Shown: one piece after another, positions 22,190 through 39,900 of the stretch | Position numbering within the stretch: position 1 is the first letter of the stretch | Layout: each line of letters begins with the position of its first letter | Sequence record: OR352947.1 | Source: Escherichia phage AV117 | DNA: 64,000 nt | Direction: 5' to 3' (one strand) | Position numbers and translations under genes: made by a program | The notes under the pieces: model-generated | Told to the model about the DNA's origin: nothing | The model's database searches: none | Seen by the model: only the letters and a program-made list of their open reading frames with translations

Positions 22190-22387
22190 ATGTTTAAACT
22201 TCCATCGTTAATCAACGCTATTAAAGGCAATAAAAAGAAAACTGCTATCGCTGCAATAGTTGTAGGTGGCATTATTTCATGGAACTTCGGGATTGCGCCA
22301 TTGTTAGTTGCCCATGGTGTTATGGTTCCTTCTGTTCCATTGGATACTGTAGTTGATTTAGCCTTTGCTATTATAGGGCTTGTCTAA
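22190..22387 (+). CDS. small membrane protein (65 aa), plus strand
   Basis: strong AAGGAG RBS 7 nt before ATG; two hydrophobic segments; sits in the 56-61 intergenic gap on the opposite strand. Confidence 0.5.
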   Translation: MFKLPSLINAIKGNKKKTAIAAIVVGGIISWNFGIAPLLVAHGVMVPSVPLDTVVDLAFAIIGLV

Positions 22388-23406
22388 ATCTTAGAATAAT
22401 GAGATAATCTCATTTTAGCATGCAACCCACTTGAAATATTCTGTTTCATATATTCTAAAATTTCTTGTGGTGTTGCATTTTCTTTCATTACCATATCATT
22501 CACATCCTTTGATCTCCACGGAGCTCGGTCCCAGAACATGACACGTTCGCCTGCATCAACTAATCGCTTCATGCGAGCTATAGTATCCGGATGCCTAGGT
22601 TCATTATCCATTACCCATACCCGACGTTCTTTAAATGGTACCACATCTAAATCTATTGAGCCGCCTGTAATAGCGATTGCATTGGGTATGAATAAACTAT
22701 CAATAGGGCCTTCCATCACCCAGACGTCTCCTTCCTTAACACGTTCAACACCATAAATTTTTGTTGCAGACTCAAACGCTTTAATAGTGATATATTTCTG
22801 AGGAGCATCTTTACGAAGTGCACGTCCTTGGAATGACTCAGCCTTCCCATCTTTATTAAAAATAGGAATCACTAAACGTGGTTCGGGAATCTCTTTCTTA
22901 TACGTACCAGGTTGAATCTTGTTGACCAATTTAGGCCATTCTAATGTGAACCATAATCTGTCCCATGATTCTTTAGGAATGCATCGAGACTTAACATATT
23001 TCACAATAGGATGCTCTTCAGGCAGCTTGTCCAGACGAGAACAAGACGGCAAAGAATTTATAGTCTTTTTCTCCGGTTCTGGTTTATGTTCAGGAACCTT
23101 TTCAATCTTTGGTTCCATTCTAGCTTTTTCTTTACGAACTTCCATTAGATATTCGCGGTAAAGCTCTTCATCATACTCTTTTAAGTATCCGGAAATTGTA
23201 TTGTGGTATTGACAATTATAGCAATGTACATTACCAGGAGTACCGCCATAATACCATCCGCGAGCTTTCATTGCATCTGTCTGGGAGTCGCCACAAACCG
23301 GACAACGAAATGTTAATTTAAATGTACTTGAATTATTGATTTGTCTAAAACGAGGGAGGTGAGAAAACGCACGATAAGCAAATTCATTATCTATCCATTC
23401 AGCCAT
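22384..23406 (-). CDS. 61: DNA primase (gp61)
   Basis: 340 aa; N-terminal zinc-binding CPVCGDS...CYNC; TOPRIM region; size and order as T4 gp61. Confidence 0.9.
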   Translation of the reverse strand: MAEWIDNEFAYRAFSHLPRFRQINNSSTFKLTFRCPVCGDSQTDAMKARGWYYGGTPGNVHCYNCQYHNTISGYLKEYDEELYREYLMEVRKEKARMEPKIEKVPEHKPEPEKKTINSLPSCSRLDKLPEEHPIVKYVKSRCIPKESWDRLWFTLEWPKLVNKIQPGTYKKEIPEPRLVIPIFNKDGKAESFQGRALRKDAPQKYITIKAFESATKIYGVERVKEGDVWVMEGPIDSLFIPNAIAITGGSIDLDVVPFKERRVWVMDNEPRHPDTIARMKRLVDAGERVMFWDRAPWRSKDVNDMVMKENATPQEILEYMKQNISSGLHAKMRLSHYSKI

Positions 23407-24131: not shown

Positions 24132-24791
24132 TTAACCTCGATTCATAAATGCATTAAATATTTGGTCATCAACAGAAATTTCTAATTCGACTTCAATTGC
24201 TTCAGCCTTTTCTTCAGGTGGTAATTCGTATCCACACACTACAATTTTTTCATCAATATCAAAATATACGGAAGCAATATGATTAATGTTATTTTCGGTT
24301 AAGTCTAAATCAACATCAACATCTTTTTGACCTACACTTAAAGGATAACTAATACGGGTTATTTTATTATCTTTAACAAAGAGACCACCGACATACTCTG
24401 TACTACGTTTGAAGTTTACACGTTTCCGAAATGAAAGATATGATGCATCTTTACCGTGAGCTCGGCTCATAGGACATAATGAATAGCTAGAATAAGAGAT
24501 GTCAAATCCTACACCTTCAATATGAGCCAACGCGTCATGATTAAACCAATTATAATCATATGCCAAATCCATTATATTGTAATATGTGAAAGGCACCGGA
24601 TTAACATCATACGTTGTACCTTTAAAATCTGCCCAGGCAACGATTTCGTTATCTTTAACAATTACAAAAATTACACCAATATGGTATCCGTTATTATTTT
24701 CGTTCGGCGTTATATTATAACATTGTGCATTAGGAAATTTACCATATTTAAATGGCGCATTTTTGTGCATATAATAAATCATATTATTCAC
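24132..24791 (-). CDS. hypothetical protein (219 aa)
   Basis: ORF. Confidence 0.5.
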   Translation of the reverse strand: MNNMIYYMHKNAPFKYGKFPNAQCYNITPNENNNGYHIGVIFVIVKDNEIVAWADFKGTTYDVNPVPFTYYNIMDLAYDYNWFNHDALAHIEGVGFDISYSSYSLCPMSRAHGKDASYLSFRKRVNFKRSTEYVGGLFVKDNKITRISYPLSVGQKDVDVDLDLTENNINHIASVYFDIDEKIVVCGYELPPEEKAEAIEVELEISVDDQIFNAFMNRG

Positions 24792-25077
24792 CTGTGATTT
24801 CGGTTACGATATCTTTGTTATCGAAATTAGGGTCACAATACAAAACATAATTGTACTGCATGATGCCGCCAGTCTTAAGTTGTTCAACAACTTTATTAAC
24901 CATATTAGGACGGTCTCGTTTAGTGATGTTCATGATATCAGAGAAGATTTGTTGTTCAACATCTTCTTGATTTGCAGTCATTGACCACTCACAGAGGTCT
25001 TTATCATAACCTGCTGTAACTGGAGCCGGTGCACATGATACTGCAAGTAAGATTGCTGCCAATGATAACTTTTTCAT
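24784..25077 (-). CDS. sp: Spackle periplasmic protein (superinfection exclusion / lysozyme inhibitor)
   Basis: 97 aa; signal peptide then AGYDKDLCEWSMTA...IMNI.KRDRP...GG.MQYNYVLYCD.NF.NK.I..E..GE matches my recollection of T4 Sp. Confidence 0.82.
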   Translation of the reverse strand: MKKLSLAAILLAVSCAPAPVTAGYDKDLCEWSMTANQEDVEQQIFSDIMNITKRDRPNMVNKVVEQLKTGGIMQYNYVLYCDPNFDNKDIVTEITGE

Positions 25078-25140
25078 TTTAACTCCTTAGTTGATTTGAT
25101 AGGACTACTATACTATAGTCCATCTATAATGTAAACAAGT

Positions 25141-25389
25141 TTATTCTTTTTCGCGAATAATAATTACTTGTTGAGTCTGCTGAGCAGATTTCTTTTCGGC
25201 AACGATAGACCAAATTAAAGTTCCAATCCAACCAACCATCGTCCAGTTAAAGAGTAAAGATACAAAGAAGATTGCTGTTGTGCTTTTTGTGCCACGAATA
25301 AGTGCGATTACCCAAGGCAACATGTAAATGATGATTGAACCAATACCTGCGATTAAAACTGCTACTGAACTAGCTACGAATAATTCCAT
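25141..25389 (-). CDS. imm: superinfection immunity protein Imm-like (membrane)
   Basis: 82 aa; LPWVIALIRGTK...IFFVSLLFNWTMVGW...LIWS fits the Imm superinfection-immunity family signature as I recall it. Confidence 0.6.
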   Translation of the reverse strand: MELFVASSVAVLIAGIGSIIIYMLPWVIALIRGTKSTTAIFFVSLLFNWTMVGWIGTLIWSIVAEKKSAQQTQQVIIIREKE

Positions 25390-25404
25390 GTTAATTTCCT
25401 CTTG

Positions 25405-25447
25405 ATTTGTTATGTTTATAATATCTTGTTTTGACTTTGGCGTAAAC
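25405..25447 (-). promoter_or_regulatory. early promoter upstream of the imm-like gene
   Basis: GTTTAC-N18-TATTAT. Confidence 0.45.
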
Positions 25448-25450
25448 CAA

Positions 25451-25819
25451 TTAATTAAATTTGTTTAAACGTTCAATACACTGGACGTAGTTATTTGCGA
25501 TTTGTTTCTGGGTAGGCTCTTTACCGGTTGTTTCAACATAGCGAATGAATGCTATTTCAGTAGCCTGTAGACAATGTTCTTTAACGCGTTGTTCTTTTGG
25601 CAATGCTACAGTATCAGAGTCACGATAACGTTGAGCATGGGCATCAGCTTGAATCATTCGATTACCTACAGTAACCGGGTCTTCCACTTCAACTTTAGGT
25701 TGGTCATACTGTTTAACATTCGGATTGTAAATCAGTTGGCCAACGTTATTAGGGATAAAGCCATGGGCACCACATCCGGTTAATCCAAATACCATTGCTA
25801 AAGCGATTAATTTTTTCAT
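25451..25819 (-). CDS. putative lipoprotein (122 aa)
   Basis: signal peptide with lipobox LTGC. Confidence 0.5.
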   Translation of the reverse strand: MKKLIALAMVFGLTGCGAHGFIPNNVGQLIYNPNVKQYDQPKVEVEDPVTVGNRMIQADAHAQRYRDSDTVALPKEQRVKEHCLQATEIAFIRYVETTGKEPTQKQIANNYVQCIERLNKFN

Positions 25820-25879
25820 TTCAATTTCCTCTGTAGTTGATAGAAAGATAGTAACACAGTATGCGATGCTTGTAAACAG

Positions 25880-26092
25880 CTATTTTAAACTTTTGCGAAA
25901 TTTGCGTTTTTCTTGACGAATCTGTCGTTTAGTCGGACGTACAGCAAATTTAACGAAGTCCACTTTGCCATGTGGAAACTTTTCAGATGCTTCACAGTCC
26001 ATCATTAGTTCCCATCCTTCCAGAATAAGAGCTTTCCATTGCGTAGTTGATGCAAATTCGTATGTTGATGGTTTAAACACAGTTGAATACAT
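25880..26092 (-). CDS. small basic protein with C-terminal VRPTKRQIR motif
   Basis: 70 aa; shares the RPTKR(Q/M)(L/I)R..KR motif with ORFs at 53862-54041 and 54466-54663. Confidence 0.45.
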   Translation of the reverse strand: MYSTVFKPSTYEFASTTQWKALILEGWELMMDCEASEKFPHGKVDFVKFAVRPTKRQIRQEKRKFRKSLK

Positions 26093-26093
26093 A

Positions 26094-26306
26094 TTATCCT
26101 CTTAAATCAGCTTCAAAAACTTTCTCGTCATTAACAAATGCTTTAACTAATGCGTTGTTCACTTCAGCAAGTTGTACAGCAACCCACTCAATTTCTTCAC
26201 GGTCACCTGATAACATGATATCTTTAGTGAACATCTCACCGCTTTTAAACCAACCAATAAAAGTAACTTTAGTTAATTTGCTCATATTTCCTCGCAAAAT
26301 GCCCAT
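26094..26306 (-). CDS. dmd: Dmd (discriminator of mRNA degradation; antitoxin vs RnlA/LsoA)
   Basis: start probably MSKLTKV; VTFIGWFK...MFTK.I....D...W...Q.AEVN.ALVKAF..D.KV.E.D.RG matches my recollection of T4 Dmd (60 aa). Confidence 0.8.
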   Translation of the reverse strand: MGILRGNMSKLTKVTFIGWFKSGEMFTKDIMLSGDREEIEWVAVQLAEVNNALVKAFVNDEKVFEADLRG

Positions 26307-26599
26307 TCAGCGTGATAAACTGTAGCACCTTTAGTATCATTCATTTGAACTACATCTACCGGAGAAATTACTCGATAGAGACGTGGTTCACCTCCATAAG
26401 AGCGTGCTGCTCGTCCTGCATAAATCTTTGCTAAACCGATATCTTCAGTAAAGAATACCCGATCCAAGTTTTTCTTACGTCCTGTTTCAGACAGAACTCC
26501 TGTTTCTTCAGGAGGACAAAGCATGTTTTCGATGTTAGCTGAACTACTTGAACCGTGATAAAAAATCTTAAATTCTGCTTTACAATCGATGGTTTTCAT
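26282..26599 (-). CDS. hypothetical protein (105 aa)
   Basis: ORF with GGAGAA RBS and promoter upstream. Confidence 0.45.
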   Translation of the reverse strand: MKTIDCKAEFKIFYHGSSSSANIENMLCPPEETGVLSETGRKKNLDRVFFTEDIGLAKIYAGRAARSYGGEPRLYRVISPVDVVQMNDTKGATVYHAEWAFCEEI

Positions 26600-26607
26600 T
26601 TTGTTCT

Positions 26608-26654
26608 CCAGTAGTTGATAGGTCTATAATAACACAACTACTGGAGAAGTAAAC
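26608..26654 (-). promoter_or_regulatory. early promoter with -10 element flanked by the 10-bp inverted repeat CCAGTAGTTG/CAACTACTGG
   Basis: GTTTAC-N17-TATTAT-AGACCTATC; the first 30 nt are duplicated at 59682-59711. Confidence 0.55.
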
Positions 26655-27029
26655 TTAAAAACGTAATTTAGATACATCTGCGTTGATTTCGCTTTGGTTT
26701 GCGTCGTATGCAATTAAACGAACAGCTTTAGATGGGTCATTCAATGCATAGAAATGATGGAACATTGCTCGAACGATATCACCATTTACGAGTTCTACCT
26801 GGATAGGAGAACCTTTTTCGAGTTGGAAATGTTCATAAGCTTTGATGGTTCGCAGATAATCAAGTTTTTGATTTCCGGCTCCAACAATTTGTACAATACG
26901 TTTGCCCATGTTTTCCATACGAGATACAATAGTTTTAGGAGCAAGAATAACGTAGGTTGCCAGCGGAGAAACTACTTCAACAGTTGTGTTTTCGGTGATT
27001 GCAGTAAAAATTGCTTGAGACATATTCAT
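26655..27029 (-). CDS. hypothetical protein (124 aa)
   Basis: ORF. Confidence 0.5.
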   Translation of the reverse strand: MNMSQAIFTAITENTTVEVVSPLATYVILAPKTIVSRMENMGKRIVQIVGAGNQKLDYLRTIKAYEHFQLEKGSPIQVELVNGDIVRAMFHHFYALNDPSKAVRLIAYDANQSEINADVSKLRF

Positions 27030-27054
27030 AATGTTTTCCTCTTGGTTTGTGTAA

Positions 27055-27088
27055 GTACATCATATCATGCCTAGAGGAAGATGTAAAC
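27055..27088 (-). promoter_or_regulatory. early promoter directly downstream of the gene 41 terminator
   Basis: GTTTAC-N18-TATGAT. Confidence 0.5.
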
Positions 27089-27093
27089 CCCGA

Positions 27094-27111
27094 AAGGAGA
27101 CCGAAGTCTCC
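27094..27111 (-). terminator. UUCG-tetraloop hairpin after gene 41
   Basis: aggagac-cgaa-gtctcct; a T-run follows on the plus strand and a weaker U-tract on the minus. Confidence 0.5.
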
Positions 27112-27117
27112 TTTTTG

Positions 27118-28560
27118 TTAAAATTTTAACTCATTGGCTAAGCTATCTAGGTCAGCACGTGTTGCTTTGGCTTTACCTACGCGTTCCGTACGATTCACCT
27201 CTGCCTGACGCATCTGAGCACCTGCGTTTTCATTTACTGTGTTAGGTGTGTTCATGCCTTCTTGCTCAATCTCAACCCATTTCTGGTTGCCTTTACGTAC
27301 ACCCATCAGGAATTTATTCCACTTATTCTTATCACCATATCGTGATTTGATCTGTTTGATAAGTTGTTGTTCAGCTTGTGCAAGTTCTTCGGTTTCAATT
27401 ACGGCCAACATGAAATCTGCTGTTGCTGGTAAACCTGCTGATTCTGCAATATCACTCATGTTCATATCCGAAGCATCCCATGCTGCACGTCCTACTTGAG
27501 CTGCAGTCCATAGAACTGTTTCAGATTCTACTGCTAATGCACGAAGTTCTTCTGCGATAGCTTTAACTAATGTGTAGCTATTTTCAGTGTAAACTCTGAT
27601 ACGACAAGACCCACAAATACCTAAGTAATCAACCATGATTACAGATGGCACAAAGTTCTTCTTGAGTTTCAATTCATTAAGCAATGCACGGAATGTATTA
27701 GCATTAGCTCCGCCAGTAGGATACTGTTTAACTACTAAACGTCCTAATGTTGTTTTTGAACGCCATTTTTCCATCTTGGCTTTATATTCAGCATAAGATA
27801 CGTTACCATCATCAATATCATCAAGTGATACGTCAAGCATGTTTGCATCTATACGCTTAGCGCAAACTTCTTCGGCCATTTCCATGGAAATATAAAGAAC
27901 ATTATGACCTGTTTGAAGATAATCTGCAGCAAGTGAACAAAGGCCTAAAGATTTACCAACGTTAACACCAGCCATTAAAACATTCAGCGTACCGGTTTCA
28001 GCACCACCTTTAGTGATTTTATTCAGAACGTTTAATTTGAACGGGACCTTACGTGCTTTATTTAGATAAGAAAGCCAGCGTGCTTCATAGTCTTCCATCC
28101 AGTCATGTCCAACATAACTATCAAACGAAATTGAAAGTGCTTGACGCATAATATCAGGAATAGCTCCTACGTCAGGCATTTTCTTGTTACGTTGTTCTGG
28201 AGGTAGTTCAGCATTAGACTGAATCTCAATGATTTTGGACGTAGCGTTATACATCGCTTTTTGCTGGACGTATTTCTCAGTTTCTTTAACCAACCATTCG
28301 TGGTCTTCAGGAGTATCAGCCAATTTTTCAATTAGGTCTGAAGTTCCTTTATATTCAGCTTCAGTTAAAGAACTGTTATCTAAAGCCACCTTTAATGCAT
28401 TTATAGACGGCATTGCATTATATTCGTTAACGTGGCTCTTTATAATTTTAAAGACATTTTTTGCCGGTCCACGCTCAAAATACTCAGAATCCATATAAGG
28501 CCAGACCTTAGAAAAATAAGCCTGGTCATATACTAGATGAGACAAAATAATTTCTACCAC
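27118..28560 (-). CDS. 41: replicative DNA helicase gp41 (DnaB-like)
   Basis: 480 aa; Walker A GVNVGKS, RecA-like core; position between 61 and uvsX. Confidence 0.95.
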   Translation of the reverse strand: MVEIILSHLVYDQAYFSKVWPYMDSEYFERGPAKNVFKIIKSHVNEYNAMPSINALKVALDNSSLTEAEYKGTSDLIEKLADTPEDHEWLVKETEKYVQQKAMYNATSKIIEIQSNAELPPEQRNKKMPDVGAIPDIMRQALSISFDSYVGHDWMEDYEARWLSYLNKARKVPFKLNVLNKITKGGAETGTLNVLMAGVNVGKSLGLCSLAADYLQTGHNVLYISMEMAEEVCAKRIDANMLDVSLDDIDDGNVSYAEYKAKMEKWRSKTTLGRLVVKQYPTGGANANTFRALLNELKLKKNFVPSVIMVDYLGICGSCRIRVYTENSYTLVKAIAEELRALAVESETVLWTAAQVGRAAWDASDMNMSDIAESAGLPATADFMLAVIETEELAQAEQQLIKQIKSRYGDKNKWNKFLMGVRKGNQKWVEIEQEGMNTPNTVNENAGAQMRQAEVNRTERVGKAKATRADLDSLANELKF

Positions 28561-28569
28561 GATAACTCC

Positions 28570-28932
28570 TTAAAAGAATTTAAATTTTTTCTTGGTCCGT
28601 TCATTAAAAGCTTGTTGTACTTGCATTGTAACACATTTTTCAACATGCGGTGCAAGTTCTGCTTTTCTGTCCTGGTCAAGAACTGCAAAGTCCATTACGA
28701 TTTTACCATCAACCCAGTCTAGTTTTGTAATATAGACTATATGATGAGAACCATCTTCAAGTGTAATCAGAATCTCTTGAATGACATTTTCCATTGCTGA
28801 ACGGATAATTTTAAGAGATTCATTAAACACTCGTTCTTTGCGAATGTCTTCCCCTTCCGAAGAAGGGGATTCATCAACGATTTCTAGATTTAAATCATCG
28901 AGATTATTCATCGAAATCTTCCATTTCGTCAA
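28570..28932 (-). CDS. 40: gp40-like protein (head vertex assembly chaperone position)
   Basis: 120 aa between 41 and uvsX as in T4; sequence identity not verified. Confidence 0.5.
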   Translation of the reverse strand: MTKWKISMNNLDDLNLEIVDESPSSEGEDIRKERVFNESLKIIRSAMENVIQEILITLEDGSHHIVYITKLDWVDGKIVMDFAVLDQDRKAELAPHVEKCVTMQVQQAFNERTKKKFKFF

Positions 28933-30076
28933 GGTCGTTTTCTATATCTGCTGCAGACGGAGCATCAGAAGTTTTAACCGGAACTTTAGTTGTGGCTTTG
29001 CAATTAATAAGGTCATTAACAGCGTCATCAACTTCTTTAATAGAAGAGATAGCACCTAGTTTATATTTAGTTTCAATTGCATCTCGGAAAGGTTTGTGTT
29101 TAAACAAAGGTCCCCAGAATTCTACACAATCAGTAGCTTTAGCACGCCATGATTTTTCTTCACGAATCATTTCGCCAGTTTCTTCGTCAAGGAATTCACG
29201 AGCATACCAACCAGCTTTAGGCTTAACTACAAAACCAATTTCAGTTGCCATTTCTAACAAGCCACTGAATGGGTCGATACCACCATCAAAATTAACAGTG
29301 ATTGGGAAAGTAGATTTTTCTTTAACGGTGCGAGATTTTTCTGCTTTCAACGTGAAGTCATAACCGGTCAATTCTGTACCTTCTTTAACCTGACGTTTAG
29401 AGATAAAAAATACCGTGTTGGCAGAATAAAGAATACCTGTACCACCACCCATAATCTCTTTAGGATACAATCCGCCGATTTCCATTGCTGTATGGTTGAT
29501 TGCAACACATGGAATATCTTTAATAGTCAGATAAGGAGTCACAATGCGGAACAGAGATTTAAGTGCCTTAGCACGAGACATATCACCTACAACTTTCTCG
29601 TTCAATGCATCTTCAGTTTCTTTCTTAGATGCAGTATTACCGATTGAATCGATAAAGATAATAACTTTATCACCGCGTTCAATCGCGTCAAGCTGATTAG
29701 TCATATCAACTTTAAGTTGTTCGACAGATTGAATCGGAGTATGAACTACACGGTCTAAATCAACACCCATTGAACGAAAATAAGATTCTGAAGCACCAAA
29801 TTCCGAATCATAGAACAAACAAATTGCATCTTTATATTTCTTCATATATGCTGCAACCATGGTCAGCCCAAACAACGTTTTAAAGTGTTTAGAAGGAGCA
29901 GCAAAAATAGTTAAGCCTGATTGCAACCCGGCATTCAGTGCACCACCTAATGCAATATTCAACATCGGAATACGAGTAGGGACTTCATCGCGATTATTAA
30001 ACAACTTAGACTTAGTCAAGTCTGCAGTCATTTTAGAAGTAGAAGCTTTAATCAGACGAGATTTTAAATCAGACAT
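28904..30076 (-). CDS. uvsX: UvsX recombinase (RecA/Rad51-like)
   Basis: 390 aa; RecA core, Walker-type motifs; length as T4 UvsX. Confidence 0.95.
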   Translation of the reverse strand: MSDLKSRLIKASTSKMTADLTKSKLFNNRDEVPTRIPMLNIALGGALNAGLQSGLTIFAAPSKHFKTLFGLTMVAAYMKKYKDAICLFYDSEFGASESYFRSMGVDLDRVVHTPIQSVEQLKVDMTNQLDAIERGDKVIIFIDSIGNTASKKETEDALNEKVVGDMSRAKALKSLFRIVTPYLTIKDIPCVAINHTAMEIGGLYPKEIMGGGTGILYSANTVFFISKRQVKEGTELTGYDFTLKAEKSRTVKEKSTFPITVNFDGGIDPFSGLLEMATEIGFVVKPKAGWYAREFLDEETGEMIREEKSWRAKATDCVEFWGPLFKHKPFRDAIETKYKLGAISSIKEVDDAVNDLINCKATTKVPVKTSDAPSAADIENDLDEMEDFDE

Positions 30077-30175: not shown

Positions 30176-30724
30176 TTAACGAGCCCATTTGATAATTTCT
30201 GTAATCAAATTATTACGTTCGCTTGCATTAAATCCTATAACTTTGTTAGCACCATCATGATTAAGTAATTGATACGTTTGGATTTTGTTATGAATTGCAA
30301 ACTCTTCAAAATATGAAATGACTGTATTAAAACCGAATGAAGACAAAGTAATAAGGTCGTCTTCAAAACTTTCAGTCATTTCGTTACGTGTTAAAATAAT
30401 TGTGAACACATCATGGTTTTGGCAAAGACGAACATAATCCTGTTCATAAACGTCAAGAACCGAGTCCACATCTTGTCGAATACGTCCATAAACCCAGTTA
30501 CTAATATATCCACGGTCTAACAGATAAATCTTAGTAGGGTCTAAATAATTCAACATCGTTTCGAAACAGCCAACTTCATTTCGAGACTTAACATCGAAAC
30601 GTCCATCAACTGTTCGTTTAGGGAAATCAATCTTTACATATCTTTCACTAATTTCCATTATGTCATTAATGAAAGTTGTTTTACCAGCATTATCCGGGCC
30701 ATCTACTAAAATAATTTTAGCCAT
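30176..30724 (-). CDS. thymidylate-kinase-like P-loop nucleotide kinase
   Basis: 182 aa; P-loop ILVDGPDNAGKTT (compare Tmk GxEGxGKTT) and LLDRGY (Tmk DRY-like motif). Confidence 0.55.
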   Translation of the reverse strand: MAKIILVDGPDNAGKTTFINDIMEISERYVKIDFPKRTVDGRFDVKSRNEVGCFETMLNYLDPTKIYLLDRGYISNWVYGRIRQDVDSVLDVYEQDYVRLCQNHDVFTIILTRNEMTESFEDDLITLSSFGFNTVISYFEEFAIHNKIQTYQLLNHDGANKVIGFNASERNNLITEIIKWAR

Positions 30725-30725
30725 T

Positions 30726-31625
30726 TTATTCCTCGATTACGACATCTTCATATTTAGGTATATTATACGGCGAAGAAATTAAAGCATTAAAGTAGATGAA
30801 CTCGCCAAGACCTGGATGGAATACTTCTTCAGGATTTTCGAAGTATTGAATCTTCGGACGTCCTTTAAGAATTTGATAGTACTCAGTTTTAGTTGGTTTA
30901 AAAATTCGAATCAGCGCTTCTTCAGGATACTTATTTCTGTCGAAGCTATTATTTGGATCGGTTATATAAAGCGGTTGACCTAATTGAATTGCACATTCAA
31001 CCACTTGTTCAAAACGATAGCACGGGTCACTAATTCGAAATGGATGAAAAATACCATCTAGATGAATAGGAGCCAAATCACCTACAAGACGCTGCATGAT
31101 GGAAGGACGTATAACTTTCTGCGTTACGATAATCTTATTACCATCTGCACCTGCGTTAACCAGCACTTCTTTTTGACGTTCATTCAACACAGTAGTTTGA
31201 AGTGAACGATTAACAGACAACATGTCGGTTTTTAAGAATTCGTCAATATAAAAACGTGGTTTATTAGGGTCTGCAGTGATATTGAAATTGAATTCTACGT
31301 CAAAAGTGCCGTCATATCCAGTGATATCTGTGATTAGAAAATCACAATCATAATAATCAATTAATGAATCAACCACAAATTCATTTTCAGACCAGAAATA
31401 TTTACGAGTGTTATATGCGTTATCTTTATACCATAATGGAACAAACTTAAATTCTGGGAAAAGTCGTTCACATTCTTTAATATCAGATGCATTACGTGGA
31501 TATGTAATCACATCACCCGGATTAGCACGGTGCAAATGAAGTTGGAAGTTGCCATCCTTAAGGATAGCATACTGTCCAGTTTCATAAGACCGCATACTCA
31601 AGATAGGTACGCGGAAAATAGCCAT
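30726..31625 (-). CDS. hypothetical enzyme (299 aa) in the T4 beta-gt map position
   Basis: no recognisable motif; 1-nt gap to downstream kinase and shared stop/start with the hydroxymethylase. Confidence 0.5.
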   Translation of the reverse strand: MAIFRVPILSMRSYETGQYAILKDGNFQLHLHRANPGDVITYPRNASDIKECERLFPEFKFVPLWYKDNAYNTRKYFWSENEFVVDSLIDYYDCDFLITDITGYDGTFDVEFNFNITADPNKPRFYIDEFLKTDMLSVNRSLQTTVLNERQKEVLVNAGADGNKIIVTQKVIRPSIMQRLVGDLAPIHLDGIFHPFRISDPCYRFEQVVECAIQLGQPLYITDPNNSFDRNKYPEEALIRIFKPTKTEYYQILKGRPKIQYFENPEEVFHPGLGEFIYFNALISSPYNIPKYEDVVIEE

Positions 31626-32341
31626 TAGTCAAGGAATCCTTTAACATAATCAAAATCACGTTCAAACACATGGGCACTTACCATGGTATGAGTATAATCA
31701 CCAACTTCTACACCACATTCTTTAGCGATATAATGAAGTAATTTTCCTTGGAGATAAAAATCCAACTGCATAACAACAGCACAGTTCTGAGAACGCATAT
31801 GGCAGTGGGTATAAAGCTTACCATCACGAATATAATAAGTCACTGAGTCAGTACATGGATATTCAAGTGTTTCGTCCGAATCAAGCAAAGCCTGATCTGA
31901 ACTTTCAAGAATTTGAAACACAACTCTTCGAGAGTTAGGTTTTTCTTTAAGTTCTTTTAGAAGAGTTGGTAACTGGGCCGCAATGCGAGGACCGTAGAAA
32001 GTGTTGAAGTTTGCAGGCAAAGCATCTGATTTCGGTTTAGAAATAAATTTAGCGACGTTAGGATATGCCTTAAATGCTTCTTCTGCATCAGTACCACCAG
32101 AAATCATAAATTTCCAGAAATCTTCAGCATATTCATAAGAGATGCGATTAATACGTGGGTCGGTCATTTTGAATGATGAAGGGGTATCAACAACTACTGT
32201 CATAGACCCAATTTCATTACAACGTCCAATACGAGAATCAGTAACGAACTGTGGATTTTCTAAAATTTCACGATTGACAGCTTTAAATGCGGATTGAAAA
32301 TCTTCGGCTTTAATATATTTCATTGTGTTATGTTTTCCCAT
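31625..32341 (-). CDS. 42: deoxycytidylate 5-hydroxymethyltransferase (gp42-type, thymidylate-synthase fold)
   Basis: 238 aa; PNSRRVVFQIL, YPCTDSVTYYIRDGKL (catalytic Cys), MRSQNCAVVMQLDF align by eye with the T4 gp42 blocks I recall; an Asp appears at the base-specificity position. Confidence 0.78.
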   Translation of the reverse strand: MGKHNTMKYIKAEDFQSAFKAVNREILENPQFVTDSRIGRCNEIGSMTVVVDTPSSFKMTDPRINRISYEYAEDFWKFMISGGTDAEEAFKAYPNVAKFISKPKSDALPANFNTFYGPRIAAQLPTLLKELKEKPNSRRVVFQILESSDQALLDSDETLEYPCTDSVTYYIRDGKLYTHCHMRSQNCAVVMQLDFYLQGKLLHYIAKECGVEVGDYTHTMVSAHVFERDFDYVKGFLD

Positions 32342-32354
32342 GTTTACCTCAATA

Positions 32355-32390
32355 CAGTTATTATATACTCAATTCATAAAGCTTATTTGA
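32355..32390 (-). promoter_or_regulatory. candidate MotA-dependent middle promoter upstream of the hydroxymethylase gene
   Basis: minus strand AAGCTTTA (MotA-box-like) - 11 nt - TATAAT, then GAGGT RBS; approximate. Confidence 0.4.
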
Positions 32391-32478
32391 ATTTCTTAGC
32401 GATGTTGATATAACGTAGAGCTTCGGCTTAGTATTCCAATTGAACAGGTCCTTTAATCACTTTAGCCGCTTTAGTTTC

Positions 32479-32502
32479 AAAAAGGCCCTTATGGGCCTTT
32501 TT
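32479..32502 (-). terminator. strong symmetric hairpin terminator after the 386-aa gene
   Basis: aaaaaggccc-ttat-gggccttttt: 10-bp stem flanked by A5/T5, could terminate in either direction. Confidence 0.55.
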
Positions 32503-32579
32503 AAGAATTTGTTCGTTGCTGTTAATTTTAATAGTCAAAATCTCTTCGTTAAGTTGGTGGTTAAAAGTTTTTCTAGAAA

Positions 32580-33740
32580 TCATTCTGGGTACCTCAAAGC
32601 GTCATCAGAGTTAGTTATATCAATAATAGATATAGAGTTTTCTGATAACCCATTTTTAGATAACTGACGTTTATAATATCTTTCACAATATGTACACGTC
32701 GTCCCACAGATTTCATTAGCACAATCGAAATCTGGATGTTTGAACCACCTTTTTTCTAAAAAGCCGTCTAACAAAGAGGTTTCAATATTTACCGTATGTG
32801 AAAACTCAGTCTCATTTTCAAGAGTGAAAATGGTCTCTAAAGGCTTCCACAATTCCAACAAATTACCTTCAAATTTTTCAGAAGCATAAGCTTCAAGAAC
32901 TTTCAAAATGTAGTCTGTGCTACCTGTACGTCCTGAAACTTTGAATTGAGTGATACCAATATCATTATAAAGTTTCAAATCTTGAGGACGAACAAAACGA
33001 GTTCTCAACCAGTTAAATGGGTCTGTATCACGAGCTTTAATACAGTGTTGCATTGGATATCCATTTAAGGATTTGGCATCATCTACTGTAACGTCAGTGC
33101 TATGGAAAATATAGCAAGAGTCACGATAGCTACAATGTGTTGTATACCCTTTACCAGCATTAGAACAGAACTCATTTACAAGAACTTCAAATATTATATT
33201 GTTCTTATTACAAAACTCTGCTGCACGTTTCAGGAAAGAAACTGAACGGTTCTTATGAATTCCACAGCAGACCTTTTTGATATTATATTGGTCATGCAAG
33301 TATTTGATTTGAGTTACAGCATCGACATGTAGAATTGTTGAAACTTCAATCTCAATGTCTTTATTGACTTCACGAACAATTTCCATAACAACAGGGTTAG
33401 CGATAGTAATACGCCATACGCCTATTGACCAAAGATACTGAACATAATCCTGAATAGCTTTCTTCTTCCACTCAACTAGTTCTCTTTTTGAACCAGGATT
33501 TATCGTGTTGAGTGTATAGTTAAAGCAAATACCTAATTCGTTACAACGTTTAACGTAATCTTCTAACATCTTTTTGTCAACGTCAGGAAGCCTAAAATCA
33601 GGTCTGGCTGCTACAAAAGCCATTTCTCTTGTAGAGCCGTATACTTCGTTTATCAAGCTATTAGGATAAGTTTTATTGAGCTCTACGATTTTATCAAGAA
33701 GAGCTAAATCAAAATTCGTTCCGATTTTAAAAGTATTCAT
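32580..33740 (-). CDS. hypothetical Cys-rich enzyme (386 aa)
   Basis: C-terminal cluster CANEICGTTCTYCERYY (contains C-x3-C-x2-C) plus internal VCCG and CS..AGKGYTTHCSYRDSC; possible metal/Fe-S site; function unknown. Confidence 0.5.
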   Translation of the reverse strand: MNTFKIGTNFDLALLDKIVELNKTYPNSLINEVYGSTREMAFVAARPDFRLPDVDKKMLEDYVKRCNELGICFNYTLNTINPGSKRELVEWKKKAIQDYVQYLWSIGVWRITIANPVVMEIVREVNKDIEIEVSTILHVDAVTQIKYLHDQYNIKKVCCGIHKNRSVSFLKRAAEFCNKNNIIFEVLVNEFCSNAGKGYTTHCSYRDSCYIFHSTDVTVDDAKSLNGYPMQHCIKARDTDPFNWLRTRFVRPQDLKLYNDIGITQFKVSGRTGSTDYILKVLEAYASEKFEGNLLELWKPLETIFTLENETEFSHTVNIETSLLDGFLEKRWFKHPDFDCANEICGTTCTYCERYYKRQLSKNGLSENSISIIDITNSDDALRYPE

Positions 33741-33800
33741 TTTTTTTTTTGCATCCCACGTTAATTGATGCGATGGTTTTTGCAGGTCTTACTTAAATTA

Positions 33801-34202
33801 TTATAGATTCGGTTTATATGATTTAAATGTTTCGAATTCGCCTTTATTCATAAGAGCTTTGAATTCGTCAGGACGCATAGCTTTGTCGTCGATAATCCAA
33901 TCATATACTGGTTTATGTGTTAGCAAATTATGGTACTTCAATCCAATGTTTGCCAAGTTCTGAATCAGACTTGGGAGAATGTCAATTGCTATACGACCAG
34001 GACCGACTGACTTCATACCGCGAGCAGTGTAAAGCGTTATGGTATGCCCTGCATCATACAGGGCATTAATGGCAGACACCATTTCGACGTCTGGTTTGAA
34101 GTTCACGTAATCACGATTGTTATTCCACTCTGTTATACAATCATCGACATCAAAACAAAGATTAAGCATGTTTTCTACACGGTGCATTAGATTCGTTCCC
34201 AT
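33801..34202 (-). CDS. HAD-superfamily phosphatase, small cap-less (KdsC/GmhB-like) form
   Basis: 133 aa; motif I FDVDDCIT (DxDx[TV]), LYTAR, K, DWIIDD; overlaps the upstream gene by 16 nt. Confidence 0.6.
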   Translation of the reverse strand: MGTNLMHRVENMLNLCFDVDDCITEWNNNRDYVNFKPDVEMVSAINALYDAGHTITLYTARGMKSVGPGRIAIDILPSLIQNLANIGLKYHNLLTHKPVYDWIIDDKAMRPDEFKALMNKGEFETFKSYKPNL

Positions 34203-35872
34203 TGATGAGTGATATCGCCACCGATTGGACGATAAGAAACACCGGTTTCTTTATCAGTTAGTACCCATTTACCAGGATTTTTTGTAATCAGAGTAGCCGT
34301 TACAGGTTCTGCTACGTCATAACTAATAGAGCCGTCCTGAAGTACACGGCCCATGTTACGTAATTGCTTAGTCAGAAGTTCCATACCTTTATAATATGCG
34401 GCTACCGCTTTAAGTGGATTATTCTTGAAATAACCACCTAATGCAATCCAGATAATTGCCGCTGCCAAATGATGATACTCGTTAAACGAACTCATCTTTC
34501 CATATTTGTAAACTAATGGATTGATGTTAATAGACACATTACAAGTTGTTTCATCGATAGTAAACTGTCCCCAGGTCGGATTAGCATTGAATTCATCATA
34601 ACCTGAAACAGCGTAAAGCACTTTAGCTTCATCATACAATTTTGGGCCGTAAATCTTGGTTTCGCCAAAATATCCACGAGGGTCGATAAACTTGACTTCG
34701 CCGTTATCAGTAATCATAGTATTACTGAAGTTCGGGTCACCATGAATAACAGAGTACTGTCCCTGAGAACGGTTATGATAACGAATAAGGTGTTCTAAAG
34801 CTTGTTTCAGCATTGGTTTCAGACGCCCAATCTTAGTGTAGTTCACATGTGTGATTTTACCAAATGAATCAATCAATGGTTGAATACTTTCACAACGATC
34901 AATGACTTTAGTATAGAATTCTTTAGTGAAATCACGACGAACAGTTTCAGGACTTACAAAATAAGTGTCTGTGCTGAATTTCAGTGCGTCTAAAATTGCA
35001 TCAACAATTTGTGGACGAGCAAGACTCGATTTGGATTTAATATATTCAAATGCTGGCTTACCTTTAATGCGTTCCATTTCAAAGTTATTTTCATTAACAG
35101 AAACTAACTGAGGAACTGAATCTGATTTCACTTTAAGATACCATGAAATCTCATCTTTCTGAAGAGCTCGACCCTGTTCGGTTAATGCGAATTTAGTTAC
35201 AGTTTCTTCACCAATTTCAACTGCATTAAAACTACGATTAAGTTCACGAACTTCATGAGCTTTTTCAAGTTTAGGCATATCACCTAAATCAATTAGATTC
35301 ATAAGCTCTGATTTATTGAATGCGCTGCCGTAAAGGAATTCTACGAAATCGCGTCCTTTGCAGTATTCATGAATTTCCTCATCAGTAGAACCCATATAGA
35401 ATTCCCAGTCTTTGAACTGATAAATTCCTACAACATTACCACCTGTTGAACCTACGTTAGTGATATTTTCACCGTCGAAATTATATCGACATTCGTCACC
35501 CTTAACATAGATTGCGTTAACATTCCAAGACCATGAACCAAAATCAGGAATAATATCACACCAGTTAACAATTACATTATGGCCGTCTAAATCTTTGTGC
35601 AATTTAGCAAGAGCATAAGCAGAACCATACGCTTCATCAACTGTACGAATAGTCACATTGAACCCTTCTTGCTCACAATAAGCTCGAACAGTTTCAGCAA
35701 ATTTTGAATGAACTACTACAATAATTTCATCTGCGCCAAGGTCAGAATAAATTGTATACAAATTGCTCAGAATAGTGTCTTGTTTATAATTAACAAGCAC
35801 CTTAGGAATATGATGCGTTATTGGATACAAACGAGTTGCCAGTCCAGCACCAAGAATAACAGCTTTTTTCAT
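34187..35872 (-). CDS. bifunctional sugar-1-phosphate nucleotidyltransferase (N-terminal) / APH-like anomeric sugar kinase (C-terminal)
   Basis: 561 aa; N-terminal AVILGAGLATRLYPIT..IPK (RmlA/GlmU-type GxGTRL motif); C-terminal VIHGDPNFSNTMI and FIDPRG (HxDxxxxN catalytic loop and IDxxG of aminoglycoside/choline-kinase fold). Confidence 0.7.
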   Translation of the reverse strand: MKKAVILGAGLATRLYPITHHIPKVLVNYKQDTILSNLYTIYSDLGADEIIVVVHSKFAETVRAYCEQEGFNVTIRTVDEAYGSAYALAKLHKDLDGHNVIVNWCDIIPDFGSWSWNVNAIYVKGDECRYNFDGENITNVGSTGGNVVGIYQFKDWEFYMGSTDEEIHEYCKGRDFVEFLYGSAFNKSELMNLIDLGDMPKLEKAHEVRELNRSFNAVEIGEETVTKFALTEQGRALQKDEISWYLKVKSDSVPQLVSVNENNFEMERIKGKPAFEYIKSKSSLARPQIVDAILDALKFSTDTYFVSPETVRRDFTKEFYTKVIDRCESIQPLIDSFGKITHVNYTKIGRLKPMLKQALEHLIRYHNRSQGQYSVIHGDPNFSNTMITDNGEVKFIDPRGYFGETKIYGPKLYDEAKVLYAVSGYDEFNANPTWGQFTIDETTCNVSININPLVYKYGKMSSFNEYHHLAAAIIWIALGGYFKNNPLKAVAAYYKGMELLTKQLRNMGRVLQDGSISYDVAEPVTATLITKNPGKWVLTDKETGVSYRPIGGDITHQWERI

Positions 35873-35913
35873 GTTGTGGTCCTCATTGGTAAGTAGGAGT
35901 ATTGTACACTATT

Positions 35914-36057
35914 CTAGTTAAAGCATTCATACTTTGCTTGTAGTCCAATCATAATCCATCCGATTATAAGAGTCGGAACCATTACTGGAGCCGTTAAGCT
36001 CCAGTAGATAGTCATGACAAGCATCAATAGTAAAAGTCCTATTGTTATTGCTTTCAT
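35914..36057 (-). CDS. small membrane protein (about 47 aa), translationally coupled to the isomerase gene
   Basis: MKAITIGLLLLMLVMTIYWSL...; ATG overlaps the SIS gene stop (ATGA); GAGG RBS; approximate. Confidence 0.35.
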   Translation of the reverse strand: MKAITIGLLLLMLVMTIYWSLTAPVMVPTLIIGWIMIGLQAKYECFN

Positions 36058-36689
36058 TGTTCGCCTCGTAACATGGCACCTAGTGCACCGCCAGGGTGGA
36101 ACTTAAGGAAGTCATTAGAGGTAAATCCACGCTCAGACGAAAGGTTGATAGCAAACGTATCGATAAGCGCTAACAACAATGTAGTGGACATAGTCGGAGC
36201 CAGAGAATTCTCATCAACCTCTACTGCGATGCCTGTACAGAAAGAGTAATCAAAAAGGGCTTCATTTTCTTGTGGAATGTCTGGGTTACAATGCAACAGA
36301 ATCTGTTTGACGTTAGGACGAATCATTTTAAGATGCTTAGCCACGCCTATCATTTCTTCAGTTTTACCAGAACGACTAATATGAATCAACACATCATTAG
36401 GCGCAATGAATCCTGCATCACCGTGAGAATAATGCCCAGTGTTCAAGTACATACTCGGGATACCGAGTGAAGCAAATGTCTCAGAAGCTTTAGTTGCAAT
36501 ATTAGCATTCTTACCAACACCCGTAATAATTACTCGGCTTTCATAATTACTAAGTCCAGGGCGTCGAAGAGTTTCTAGAATAGCATTATAACGAGCAGGG
36601 TTTTGACTAATTACTTTGGCCATAGCGGCCAAAGAAGAAGCTTGTTTTATGATTGCGTCAATAGCGATAGTAATAGGAGTAGTTTTCAT
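36054..36689 (-). CDS. arabinose-5-phosphate isomerase-like SIS-domain protein (KpsF/GutQ-type, no CBS domains)
   Basis: 211 aa; FASLGIPSMYLNTGHYSHGDAGFI, ISRSGKTEEM, LAPTMSTTLLLALIDTFAI and RGFTSNDFLKFHPGGALG align block-for-block with the KpsF motifs I recall. Confidence 0.78.
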   Translation of the reverse strand: MKTTPITIAIDAIIKQASSLAAMAKVISQNPARYNAILETLRRPGLSNYESRVIITGVGKNANIATKASETFASLGIPSMYLNTGHYSHGDAGFIAPNDVLIHISRSGKTEEMIGVAKHLKMIRPNVKQILLHCNPDIPQENEALFDYSFCTGIAVEVDENSLAPTMSTTLLLALIDTFAINLSSERGFTSNDFLKFHPGGALGAMLRGEQ

Positions 36690-39441: not shown

Positions 39442-39499
39442 TTAATTTCCTTTAGACGAGTTATTGTCTTTTGTTTGTTGATGAACTTATTATACTCCA

Positions 39500-39519
39500 A
39501 ATGGGACCGAAGTCCCATT
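39500..39519 (-). terminator. UUCG-tetraloop terminator after regA
   Basis: tgggac-cgaa-gtccca; a TATAAT box for gene 43 follows immediately downstream on the coding strand. Confidence 0.55.
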
Positions 39520-39522
39520 GCT

Positions 39523-39900
39523 TTAATTACCAATTGTATATTTTGCTTTCAAAGTCCAGTCATCTTTCTGTTTAAAAGAGATAACACGGAAGTTATTAGT
39601 CAAGCCAAACAGATCTTCACGAGCAGAGTCTTCAATAACAATCAATCCCCAGTCTTCAAGCAACTGAGCAATCGAATCACGTCGCTGATAGTCTTCACCG
39701 TCAATATCAACCAGACGTCCGTCCATACGCAGCATTTCTTTAAAGTGGACGATGTAATATTTACCTTGCTTTTGGAGGATATGACAAGACTGGTAAAGGA
39801 CTTTATCCTTGTTATTAGCGATGCCCATACGGGTCAAAGTCTCTTTGACTTTCAGAAAATCTTCAGGGTTCTTCAATTTAATTTCAATCATTTTTACCAT
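39523..39900 (-). CDS. regA: translational repressor RegA
   Basis: start probably MIEIKL; [36 protein letters not shown] matches my recollection of T4 RegA. Confidence 0.92.

Follow-up and report, generated by a model that had tools for sequence, protein, structure and literature searches.

A window of 64,000 nucleotides from Escherichia phage AV117 (sequence record OR352947.1; one strand, to which all positions refer) was analysed with respect to a cluster of small genes in which the superinfection immunity gene imm, together with imm.1, lies next to sp (spackle). The cluster is located between the primase gene 61 (22384-23406) and the helicase gene 41 (27118-28560). Genes were called from a listing of open reading frames (ORFs) and from Pfam and PHROG profile scans, and orthology was assigned by BLASTP against T4 proteins. 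In the direction of transcription the order is 41, a gene for a 124-residue protein, a gene for a 105-residue protein, dmd, 61.4, imm.1, imm, sp, the AdfA gene, two small ORFs and 61. They are all encoded on the minus strand, which is here the direction of early transcription in T4-type phages. A preliminary description had placed sp, an Imm-family gene, a lipoprotein gene and dmd together between 61 and 41. All four are present there on the minus strand, but a fifth gene, the 61.4 orthologue between the lipoprotein gene and dmd, had been missed, as had the flanking genes for AdfA and for an ADP-ribosyltransferase-fold protein. The region appears to belong to a 3-kb series of small early genes, and most of these carry their own T4-type early promoter motif.

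Judged by DNA identity, the source phage is a Mosigvirus (RB69-like, T4-type). The 8.2 kb around the cluster are 98.6% identical to Escherichia phage AV112, which is classified in Mosigvirus, the genus of RB69; identity to the 29 further records listed, among them ST0, HX01 and JS09, is 97.6-98.3%. In all, 150 records cover at least 80% of this 8.2-kb region.

The gene imm (25141-25389, minus strand; PF14373, phrog_1039) encodes a protein of 82 residues. Proteins of the Imm family are inner-membrane proteins that keep the DNA of superinfecting phage out of the cell. That the product belongs to the Imm family, as had been suggested, was borne out by the profile search, in which PF14373 (Imm_superinfect) was matched over all 42 profile positions with 57 bits (cut-off 27.9); the match to phrog_1039 had an E value of 2.5e-30. 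In BLASTP the protein aligned over its full length and with one gap to T4 Imm (52 of 83 positions identical, 63%; E 7e-36). By these alignments it is a true orthologue of T4 Imm. Hydrophobic regions (Kyte-Doolittle) span residues 1-34 and 38-64.

The gene imm.1 (25451-25819, minus strand; PF17578/DUF5481, phrog_1754) codes for a lipoprotein of 122 residues whose function is unknown. Its product scored 36.7 bits against PF17578/DUF5481 (cut-off 27) and was 32% identical to T4 Imm.1 (BLASTP, E 2e-18); on this similarity it is the orthologue of the T4 imm.1 product. The preliminary description had correctly recorded a lipoprotein but not its identity as Imm.1 nor its joint travel with imm. The lipobox reads LTGC, L-x-G-C is near-invariant among homologues, of which only 20 were found, and two cysteines are near-invariant as well. 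An AlphaFold2 model showed a C-terminal three-helix bundle, with a mean predicted local distance difference test (pLDDT) score of only 61.6 and 46 disordered N-terminal residues. No relevant literature on imm.1 was found in a literature search. In the metagenomic T4 relative L092 the Imm.1 homologue (718-1086) has LAGF in place of the lipobox LAGC and, judged by this replacement, would be a soluble periplasmic protein rather than a lipoprotein; the same locus carries a Phage_FRD3 gene between 43 and imm.1.

The gene sp (24784-25077, minus strand; PF25676, phrog_1586) encodes Sp, by its family a periplasmic inhibitor of the gp5 tail lysozyme of later-arriving phages. Its product matched PF25676 over profile positions 1-96 of 96 (144.8 bits), is 65% identical to T4 Sp and has an N-terminal hydrophobic signal segment (residues 1-23). 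Hydropathy, lipobox and signal sequence of Sp, Imm and Imm.1 are compatible with the locations known for their families. The 61.4 orthologue (25880-26092, minus strand; PF23945/DUF7279, 72.1 bits) encodes a protein of 70 residues and unknown function with 57% identity to T4 gp61.4 (BLASTP).

In T4 the gene order is 43, imm.1, imm, 42, b-gt, segA, uvsX, 40, 41, dmd, 61.4, sp, 61.2, 61.1, 61. There, imm is located between 42 and 43, as the preliminary description had stated, and the imm pair lies beside 43 at a distance of 6 kb from sp. In the window the position of gene 42 is taken by a thymidylate-synthase homologue (TS homologue; 31625-32341, minus strand). The interval between this gene and the DNA polymerase gene 43 (36730-39441, minus strand) contains a SIS-domain gene, a nucleotidyltransferase/kinase gene, a gene for a 133-residue protein, a U32-like gene and an ORF of 51 residues, and no Imm-family ORF was found in it. 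The sugar-pathway genes that had been noted at the canonical imm interval are here the arabinosylation genes. A tblastn search with nine queries (five Imm, four Imm.1 proteins) was made for an extra imm at the canonical position, which the description had named as a finding that would count against it; the window yielded a single copy of imm and a single copy of imm.1. Likewise, Imm matched in a single place in each of 1037 phage records, of which one fell into the range of 80-90% Imm identity. A 30-residue tblastn match at 39464-39553 (E 0.057) was considered as an imm remnant and rejected as a chance match, as it overlaps the 3' end of regA in another frame.

When the synteny of named genomes was compared, imm was located beside 43 in eight other lineages: Tequatrovirus (T4), Gelderlandvirus (Melville), Jiaodavirus (PKO111), Moonvirus (CF1), Muldoonvirus (PS2), Dhakavirus (Bp7), Gaprivervirus (TH22) and the metagenomic relative L092. 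In addition, 23 T4-like IMG/VR loci were recovered with the Imm profile. In 21 of them imm was on the 43 side, and in the remaining two, both Mosigvirus-like, it was beside sp. Because imm is found at 43 in the eight other lineages and in 21 of the 23 loci, its position in Mosigvirus is, by this comparison, the derived one; polarity was read from imm positions across lineages. The relocation that had been proposed relative to T4 is therefore real and extends through the lineage. The opposite polarity, with imm beside sp as the ancestral state and the other genera having moved it to the 43 side, is a formal possibility for which nothing specific speaks. Either seven or more genera would have had to make this move, or it would have taken place once in an ancestor of the other genera but not of Mosigvirus; yet the replication genes of Mosigvirus nest close to those of Dhakavirus and Tequatrovirus. 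We consider it highly improbable, also in view of an ORF of 47 codons that is still on the 43 side in Mosigvirus, as expected only if imm had left from there.

This ORF (35914-36057, minus strand; phrog_3610, E 1e-26; RB69 ORF054c) encodes a small membrane protein. Across phages, members of phrog_3610 at this place have 45-49 codons and two hydrophobic stretches. In DNA and protein alignments the copy of the window was 51-58% identical to those of T4, Bp7, TH22, L092 and RB69, and the ORF was intact in all of them. It directly follows imm in T4, Bp7, TH22 and L092, with an ATGA overlap in T4, TH22 and L092. The T4 copy (49 codons; NC_000866, 26230-26376) fills the '42-imm intercistronic region' and is unannotated in RefSeq, while RB69 ORF054c is annotated with 36 residues as 'similar to T4 42-imm intercistronic region'; the intact ORF encodes 47. 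In the window and in RB69 the small ORF is still located downstream of 43. The start codon of this ORF and the stop codon of the gene for arabinose-5-phosphate isomerase (36054-36689, minus strand; SIS domain, PF01380; annotated as RB69p055) overlap in an ATGA. The isomerase function was assigned in two previous studies (PMC13326640, PMC6024577). Between 43 and the small ORF, this gene occupies exactly the slot that is held by imm in Dhakavirus and Gaprivervirus. By its position and overlaps the small ORF marks the ancestral imm locus, which suggests that imm.1-imm departed without the small ORF and that a sugar gene came to lie in the imm slot. The sugar cluster as a whole (30176-36689, minus strand) is split by the 47-codon ORF, which lies between the isomerase and the nucleotidyltransferase/kinase genes.

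The preliminary description had attributed the displacement of imm to the insertion of the modification island, a causal claim that the comparison supports in part. The island genes correspond to the arabinosylation genes described for RB69 (PMC6024577, PMC13326640), in which 5-hydroxy-dCMP is the product of the TS-homologue enzyme and the genes around it serve to build arabinosylated 5-hydroxycytosine (PMC13326640). In favour of a displacement, the isomerase gene sits precisely in the imm slot with the same ATGA overlap. However, phage Bp7 has a homologous island between the small ORF and uvsX (identity to the window: nucleotidyltransferase/kinase 42%, phosphatase 62%, nucleotide kinase 36%, TS homologue 79%, glycosyltransferase 67%) and yet carries imm beside 43. 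Because of this combination, the island alone does not evict imm. From the compared gene orders, the trait that is specific to Mosigvirus is the isomerase gene in the imm slot, not the island as such. Bp7 and TH22 share with the window the small ORF downstream of 43 and, upstream of dmd, the gene for the 105-residue protein, which is 86-90% identical. They differ in that imm is at 43, the lipoprotein gene is downstream of imm, an isomerase (SIS) gene is missing and 61.4 abuts sp.

The affinities of the surrounding genes are mosaic. The products of 43, uvsX and the TS homologue are 83, 90 and 79% identical to those of Bp7 and 62, 68 and 25% identical to those of T4 (gp42 in case of the TS homologue), whereas for 61, AdfA, 41 and 40 the values are 74, 67, 85 and 80% to T4 and 60, 31, 68 and 43% to Bp7. 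The boundary lies between 40 and uvsX (28570-30076 against 27118-28932), with a T4-like stretch from 61 to 40 and a Dhakavirus-like stretch from uvsX to 43. Imm, with 63% identity to T4 Imm and 50% to that of Bp7, and the order imm.1-imm both follow the T4-affine segment, which fits a move within the genome but also a re-acquisition after a segment swap. In the latter scenario, the segment from 43 to uvsX would have been exchanged with a Dhakavirus-like arabinosylation phage, whereby imm.1-imm was lost, and the pair beside sp would have been regained from a Tequatrovirus-like phage during co-infection and kept because it was advantageous. The mosaic itself agrees with this scenario, as do the T4-like order of the pair (imm-orf47-imm.1 in Dhakavirus) and the fact that Imm.1 matched T4 Imm.1 but not the Bp7 lipoprotein in BLAST searches; phrog_1754 holds both the window Imm.1 and Bp7_0090. 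On the other hand, the divergence of Imm from its T4 counterpart resembles that of its neighbours (Sp 65%, 61.4 57%, Dmd 55%, AdfA 67%), so that long co-residence fits equally well, and no donor with higher Imm identity was present among the 1037 records. We regard re-acquisition as rather unlikely; it differs from an internal move only in the origin of the copy, and the outcome is the same.

The pairing of the two genes is constant. In all 23 T4-like IMG/VR loci imm.1 adjoins imm, with at most the small ORF between them. It is located upstream of imm in T4 and in Gelderland-, Moon-, Jiaoda- and Muldoonvirus, and downstream of it, after the small ORF, in Dhaka- and Gaprivervirus. In T4 the two genes are 11 bp apart, and one promoter precedes the pair with none in between. 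The window resembles T4 in having orthologous genes, in the location of imm.1 upstream of imm with both on one strand, in an early promoter before imm.1, and in the contiguity of sp, 61.4 and dmd. Apart from the location of the pair beside 43, T4 differs in the missing promoter between imm.1 and imm, in the overlap of the imm stop codon with the start of the small ORF, and in the lack of an ADP-ribosyltransferase-fold gene upstream of dmd.

Early-promoter-like motifs of the type GTTTAC-N17-19-TAYNRT occur 19 times in the window, compared with 0.7 expected, and 18 of them are on the minus strand. Five matches fall within 25107-27088, upstream of sp, imm, imm.1 and the genes for the 105- and 124-residue proteins. 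All eight spacers compared, from the window and T4, could be aligned in register with respect to GTTTAC, the -10 element, the Shine-Dalgarno sequence and the ATG. The motif upstream of sp (25107-25136, minus strand; GTTTACA-N17-TATAGT) has its -10 element in the loop of a short hairpin (stem-loop 25100-25125, z -2.1). Those upstream of imm (GTTTACG-N17-TATTAT) and imm.1 are located at 25418-25447 and 25848-25877 (both minus strand), the latter being a candidate for the left recombination junction. Upstream of the gene for the 105-residue protein a motif is embedded in a PeSL-like inverted repeat, a 14-bp hairpin (26599-26654, minus strand), whose folding energy was -21.5 kcal/mol (26599-26653; z -4.6), and the motif upstream of the gene for the 124-residue protein (27059-27088, minus strand) is accompanied by a terminator-like hairpin (27090-27115). 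An Rfam scan returned nothing near the gathering score; a sub-threshold 'mir-2010' match was discarded as merely the promoter hairpin. A generic terminator scan revealed no enrichment.

Promoter-mediated shuffling of cassettes has been described in T4-type phages (PMC2839356, PMC4122927). The PeSL elements reported there are TTTACW-N17-TAYWAT spacers at places where gene content varies, and three of the five spacers here similarly have a stem-loop. By comparison of genomes, cassettes were repeatedly gained and lost in the 61.4-sp slot itself: two Tequatroviruses carry a goF-like gene of 84 residues between 61.4 and sp (Ozark, L094 946-1200; ADUt, L093 998-1499), in ADUt together with an ORF of 60 residues, and 61.4 is absent from Mosigvirus FP43 (L095). 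At the left junction, the 3' end of 61.4 followed by GTTTAC resembles the T4 61.4-sp spacer, and the leader CTATCAACTACAGAGGAAATT is similar to that found downstream of 43 in Bp7 and T4. Mapping of the junctions by pairwise scores of 73-nt upstream regions was suggestive on the left and uninformative on the right.

Taken together, we consider it probable that the cluster represents a protective run of early genes into which imm.1-imm moved in a Mosigvirus ancestor, most likely through recombination at promoters. Sp, Imm and the lipoprotein Imm.1 would protect the envelope of the newly infected cell, while protection in the cytoplasm would be provided by AdfA as an anti-DarT factor, by Dmd as an antitoxin mimic and by a minimal ADP-ribosyltransferase coupled to dmd. 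The pair imm.1-imm would have been transferred in the common ancestor of Mosigvirus from downstream of 43 to the intergenic slot between 61.4 and sp, with the 47-codon ORF staying at the old site and the isomerase gene taking the place of imm. The sequences that recombined were most likely the short and almost identical early promoters with their leaders (GTTTAC-N17-TAYNRT plus leader). The gene identities, the single imm, its derived position throughout the lineage, the joint migration of imm.1, the ORF left behind and the density of promoter motifs are observations; how recombination took place, in which order the events occurred and whether the new position brings a functional benefit are points that we infer.

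Several observations weigh against this scenario. No genome with an intermediate arrangement, from which the order of the move and of the replacement by sugar genes might be read, was found. At the right junction, the imm-sp spacer was not specifically similar to the spacer between 61.4 and sp of T4, and the crossover points could not be pinned down. The leader motif CTATCAACTAC is also present upstream of the unrelated gene for the 105-residue protein, and the similarity at the left junction may reflect a generic promoter consensus. Finally, the two spacers flanking imm.1 had no significant stem-loop (z +1.4 and +0.4) and, because of this, they fall short of the full PeSL definition; nor was recombination between near-identical genomes observed here, in contrast to the PeSL studies.

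The adjacency of sp, imm and dmd might alternatively have been selected for its function, through co-regulation or a physical interaction of Sp, Imm and Imm.1, instead of having arisen by neutral shuffling. The arrangement is fixed in 154 records, all genes concerned are early and each is provided with a promoter motif, and the envelope is the site of action of Sp, Imm and Imm.1. However, T4 and seven other lineages manage with a distance of 6 kb between imm and sp, Imm and Sp are generally known to act independently in T4, and fixation within one genus is expected by common descent alone. Moreover, the new position of imm did not create an operon, as the envelope genes have an early-promoter motif each. 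Selection for adjacency thus seems improbable. The preliminary description had likewise emphasized that the move groups three superinfection-exclusion and antitoxin functions; what was added is imm.1-imm, and the grouping was overstated in that T4 already has sp, 61.4 and dmd side by side.

Among the flanking genes, that for AdfA (anti-DarT factor A; 24132-24782, minus strand) is the orthologue of T4 61.2 (PF23813, 402 bits; 67% identity to T4 gp61.2). Its start is uncertain, with ATG 24782, ATG 24770 and GTG 24791 as candidates. AdfA binds DarT1, and His164 defines the allele that neutralises DarT1 whereas Arg164 is inactive (PMC11257639). At the residue that corresponds to position 164 of RB69 AdfA, the window protein has a histidine, in contrast to Arg164 of the RB69 reference. 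By this residue, the phage of the window may be resistant to DarTG1 where RB69 is not.

The gene dmd (26094-26285, minus strand; PF17587, phrog_2102) encodes an antitoxin against RnlA/LsoA-type toxins, with 63 residues from the probable start. Dmd neutralises RnlA/LsoA. The product scored 72.8 bits against PF17587 (profile positions 3-60 of 60) and is 55% identical to T4 Dmd. Although the gene had been recognized in the preliminary description, its end had been placed at 26306. The probable start is the ATG at 26285, which is preceded by a GAGGA Shine-Dalgarno sequence and forms an ATGA overlap with the stop codon of the upstream ORF; in the long dmd ORF the Pfam match starts at residue 11, and public annotations give 63 residues. 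The upstream gene (26282-26599, minus strand; phrog_2110, RB69 ORF040c) encodes the 105-residue protein and, given that its stop overlaps the dmd start, is probably translationally coupled to dmd. The model of its product (pLDDT 87.8) displayed an ADP-ribosyltransferase fold, which was reached only via the model, as a PDB sequence search with the protein yielded no match. Residues H15, Y60, R63 and E103 are invariant in 30 sequences of the family. The protein is predicted to be a candidate ADP-ribosyltransferase of the H-Y-E clade. In T4-like phages from many hosts the family shows 60-90% conservation; T4 itself lacks it. A phage ADP-ribosyltransferase-Dmd pair has been predicted computationally (PMC9503650).

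Upstream of these genes lies that for the 124-residue protein of unknown function (26655-27029, minus strand; phrog_10668). Plus-strand ORFs within the cluster (91, 80, 69 and 106 residues) had no PHROG match and were dismissed as spurious. The sole plus-strand gene with family support in the stretch encodes a hydrophobic protein of 65 residues (22190-22387; phrog_2024, RB69 ORF029w) and is located between 56 and 61.

The layout as such is already known. In RB69, the genes RB69p034-p041 (61.2, sp, imm, imm.1, 61.4, dmd, ORF040c and ORF041c) show the same order, strand and spacing, with protein identities of 95-100% (Sp 95/97, Imm 81/82, Imm.1 120/122, 61.4 70/70, Dmd 60/63); differences concern residue 164 of AdfA and the annotated length of the ORF at the former imm site. 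The identical order sp, imm, imm.1, 61.4, dmd has been on public record in the RB69 annotation since 2003 (RefSeq NC_004928, RB69p035-p039), and the cluster is covered at 80% or more by 154 phage records; among the papers searched, none discusses the position of imm in RB69. With the type phage RB69 and upwards of 150 relatives already carrying the annotation, the feature is of low interest. The new content is modest and consists of the ORF left as a footprint, the constant pairing of imm and imm.1, and the structure of promoter cassettes.

For phage biology little changes, given that genes, order and names are already available for RB69 and more than 150 records. What is gained is that the polarity of the move is fixed by comparison and that a footprint is left at the former imm site. 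The coupling of dmd to a minimal ADP-ribosyltransferase matters when the function of Dmd is extrapolated from T4. The constant pairing makes Imm.1 and the unannotated T4 ORF of 47-49 codons reasonable candidates for deletion tests in T4 immunity. Imm, Imm.1 and the 47-residue membrane peptide could even form one envelope module, because the three genes are neighbours in every examined T4-like lineage that has them, because imm.1 moved with imm in Mosigvirus, and because imm and the peptide gene show translational coupling in T4, Gaprivervirus and L092; we put this forward tentatively, as a possibility on the unlikely side. If Imm.1, the peptide or both do take part in immunity, Mosigvirus would be a natural experiment with a split module and would offer new handles on the mechanism of Imm.

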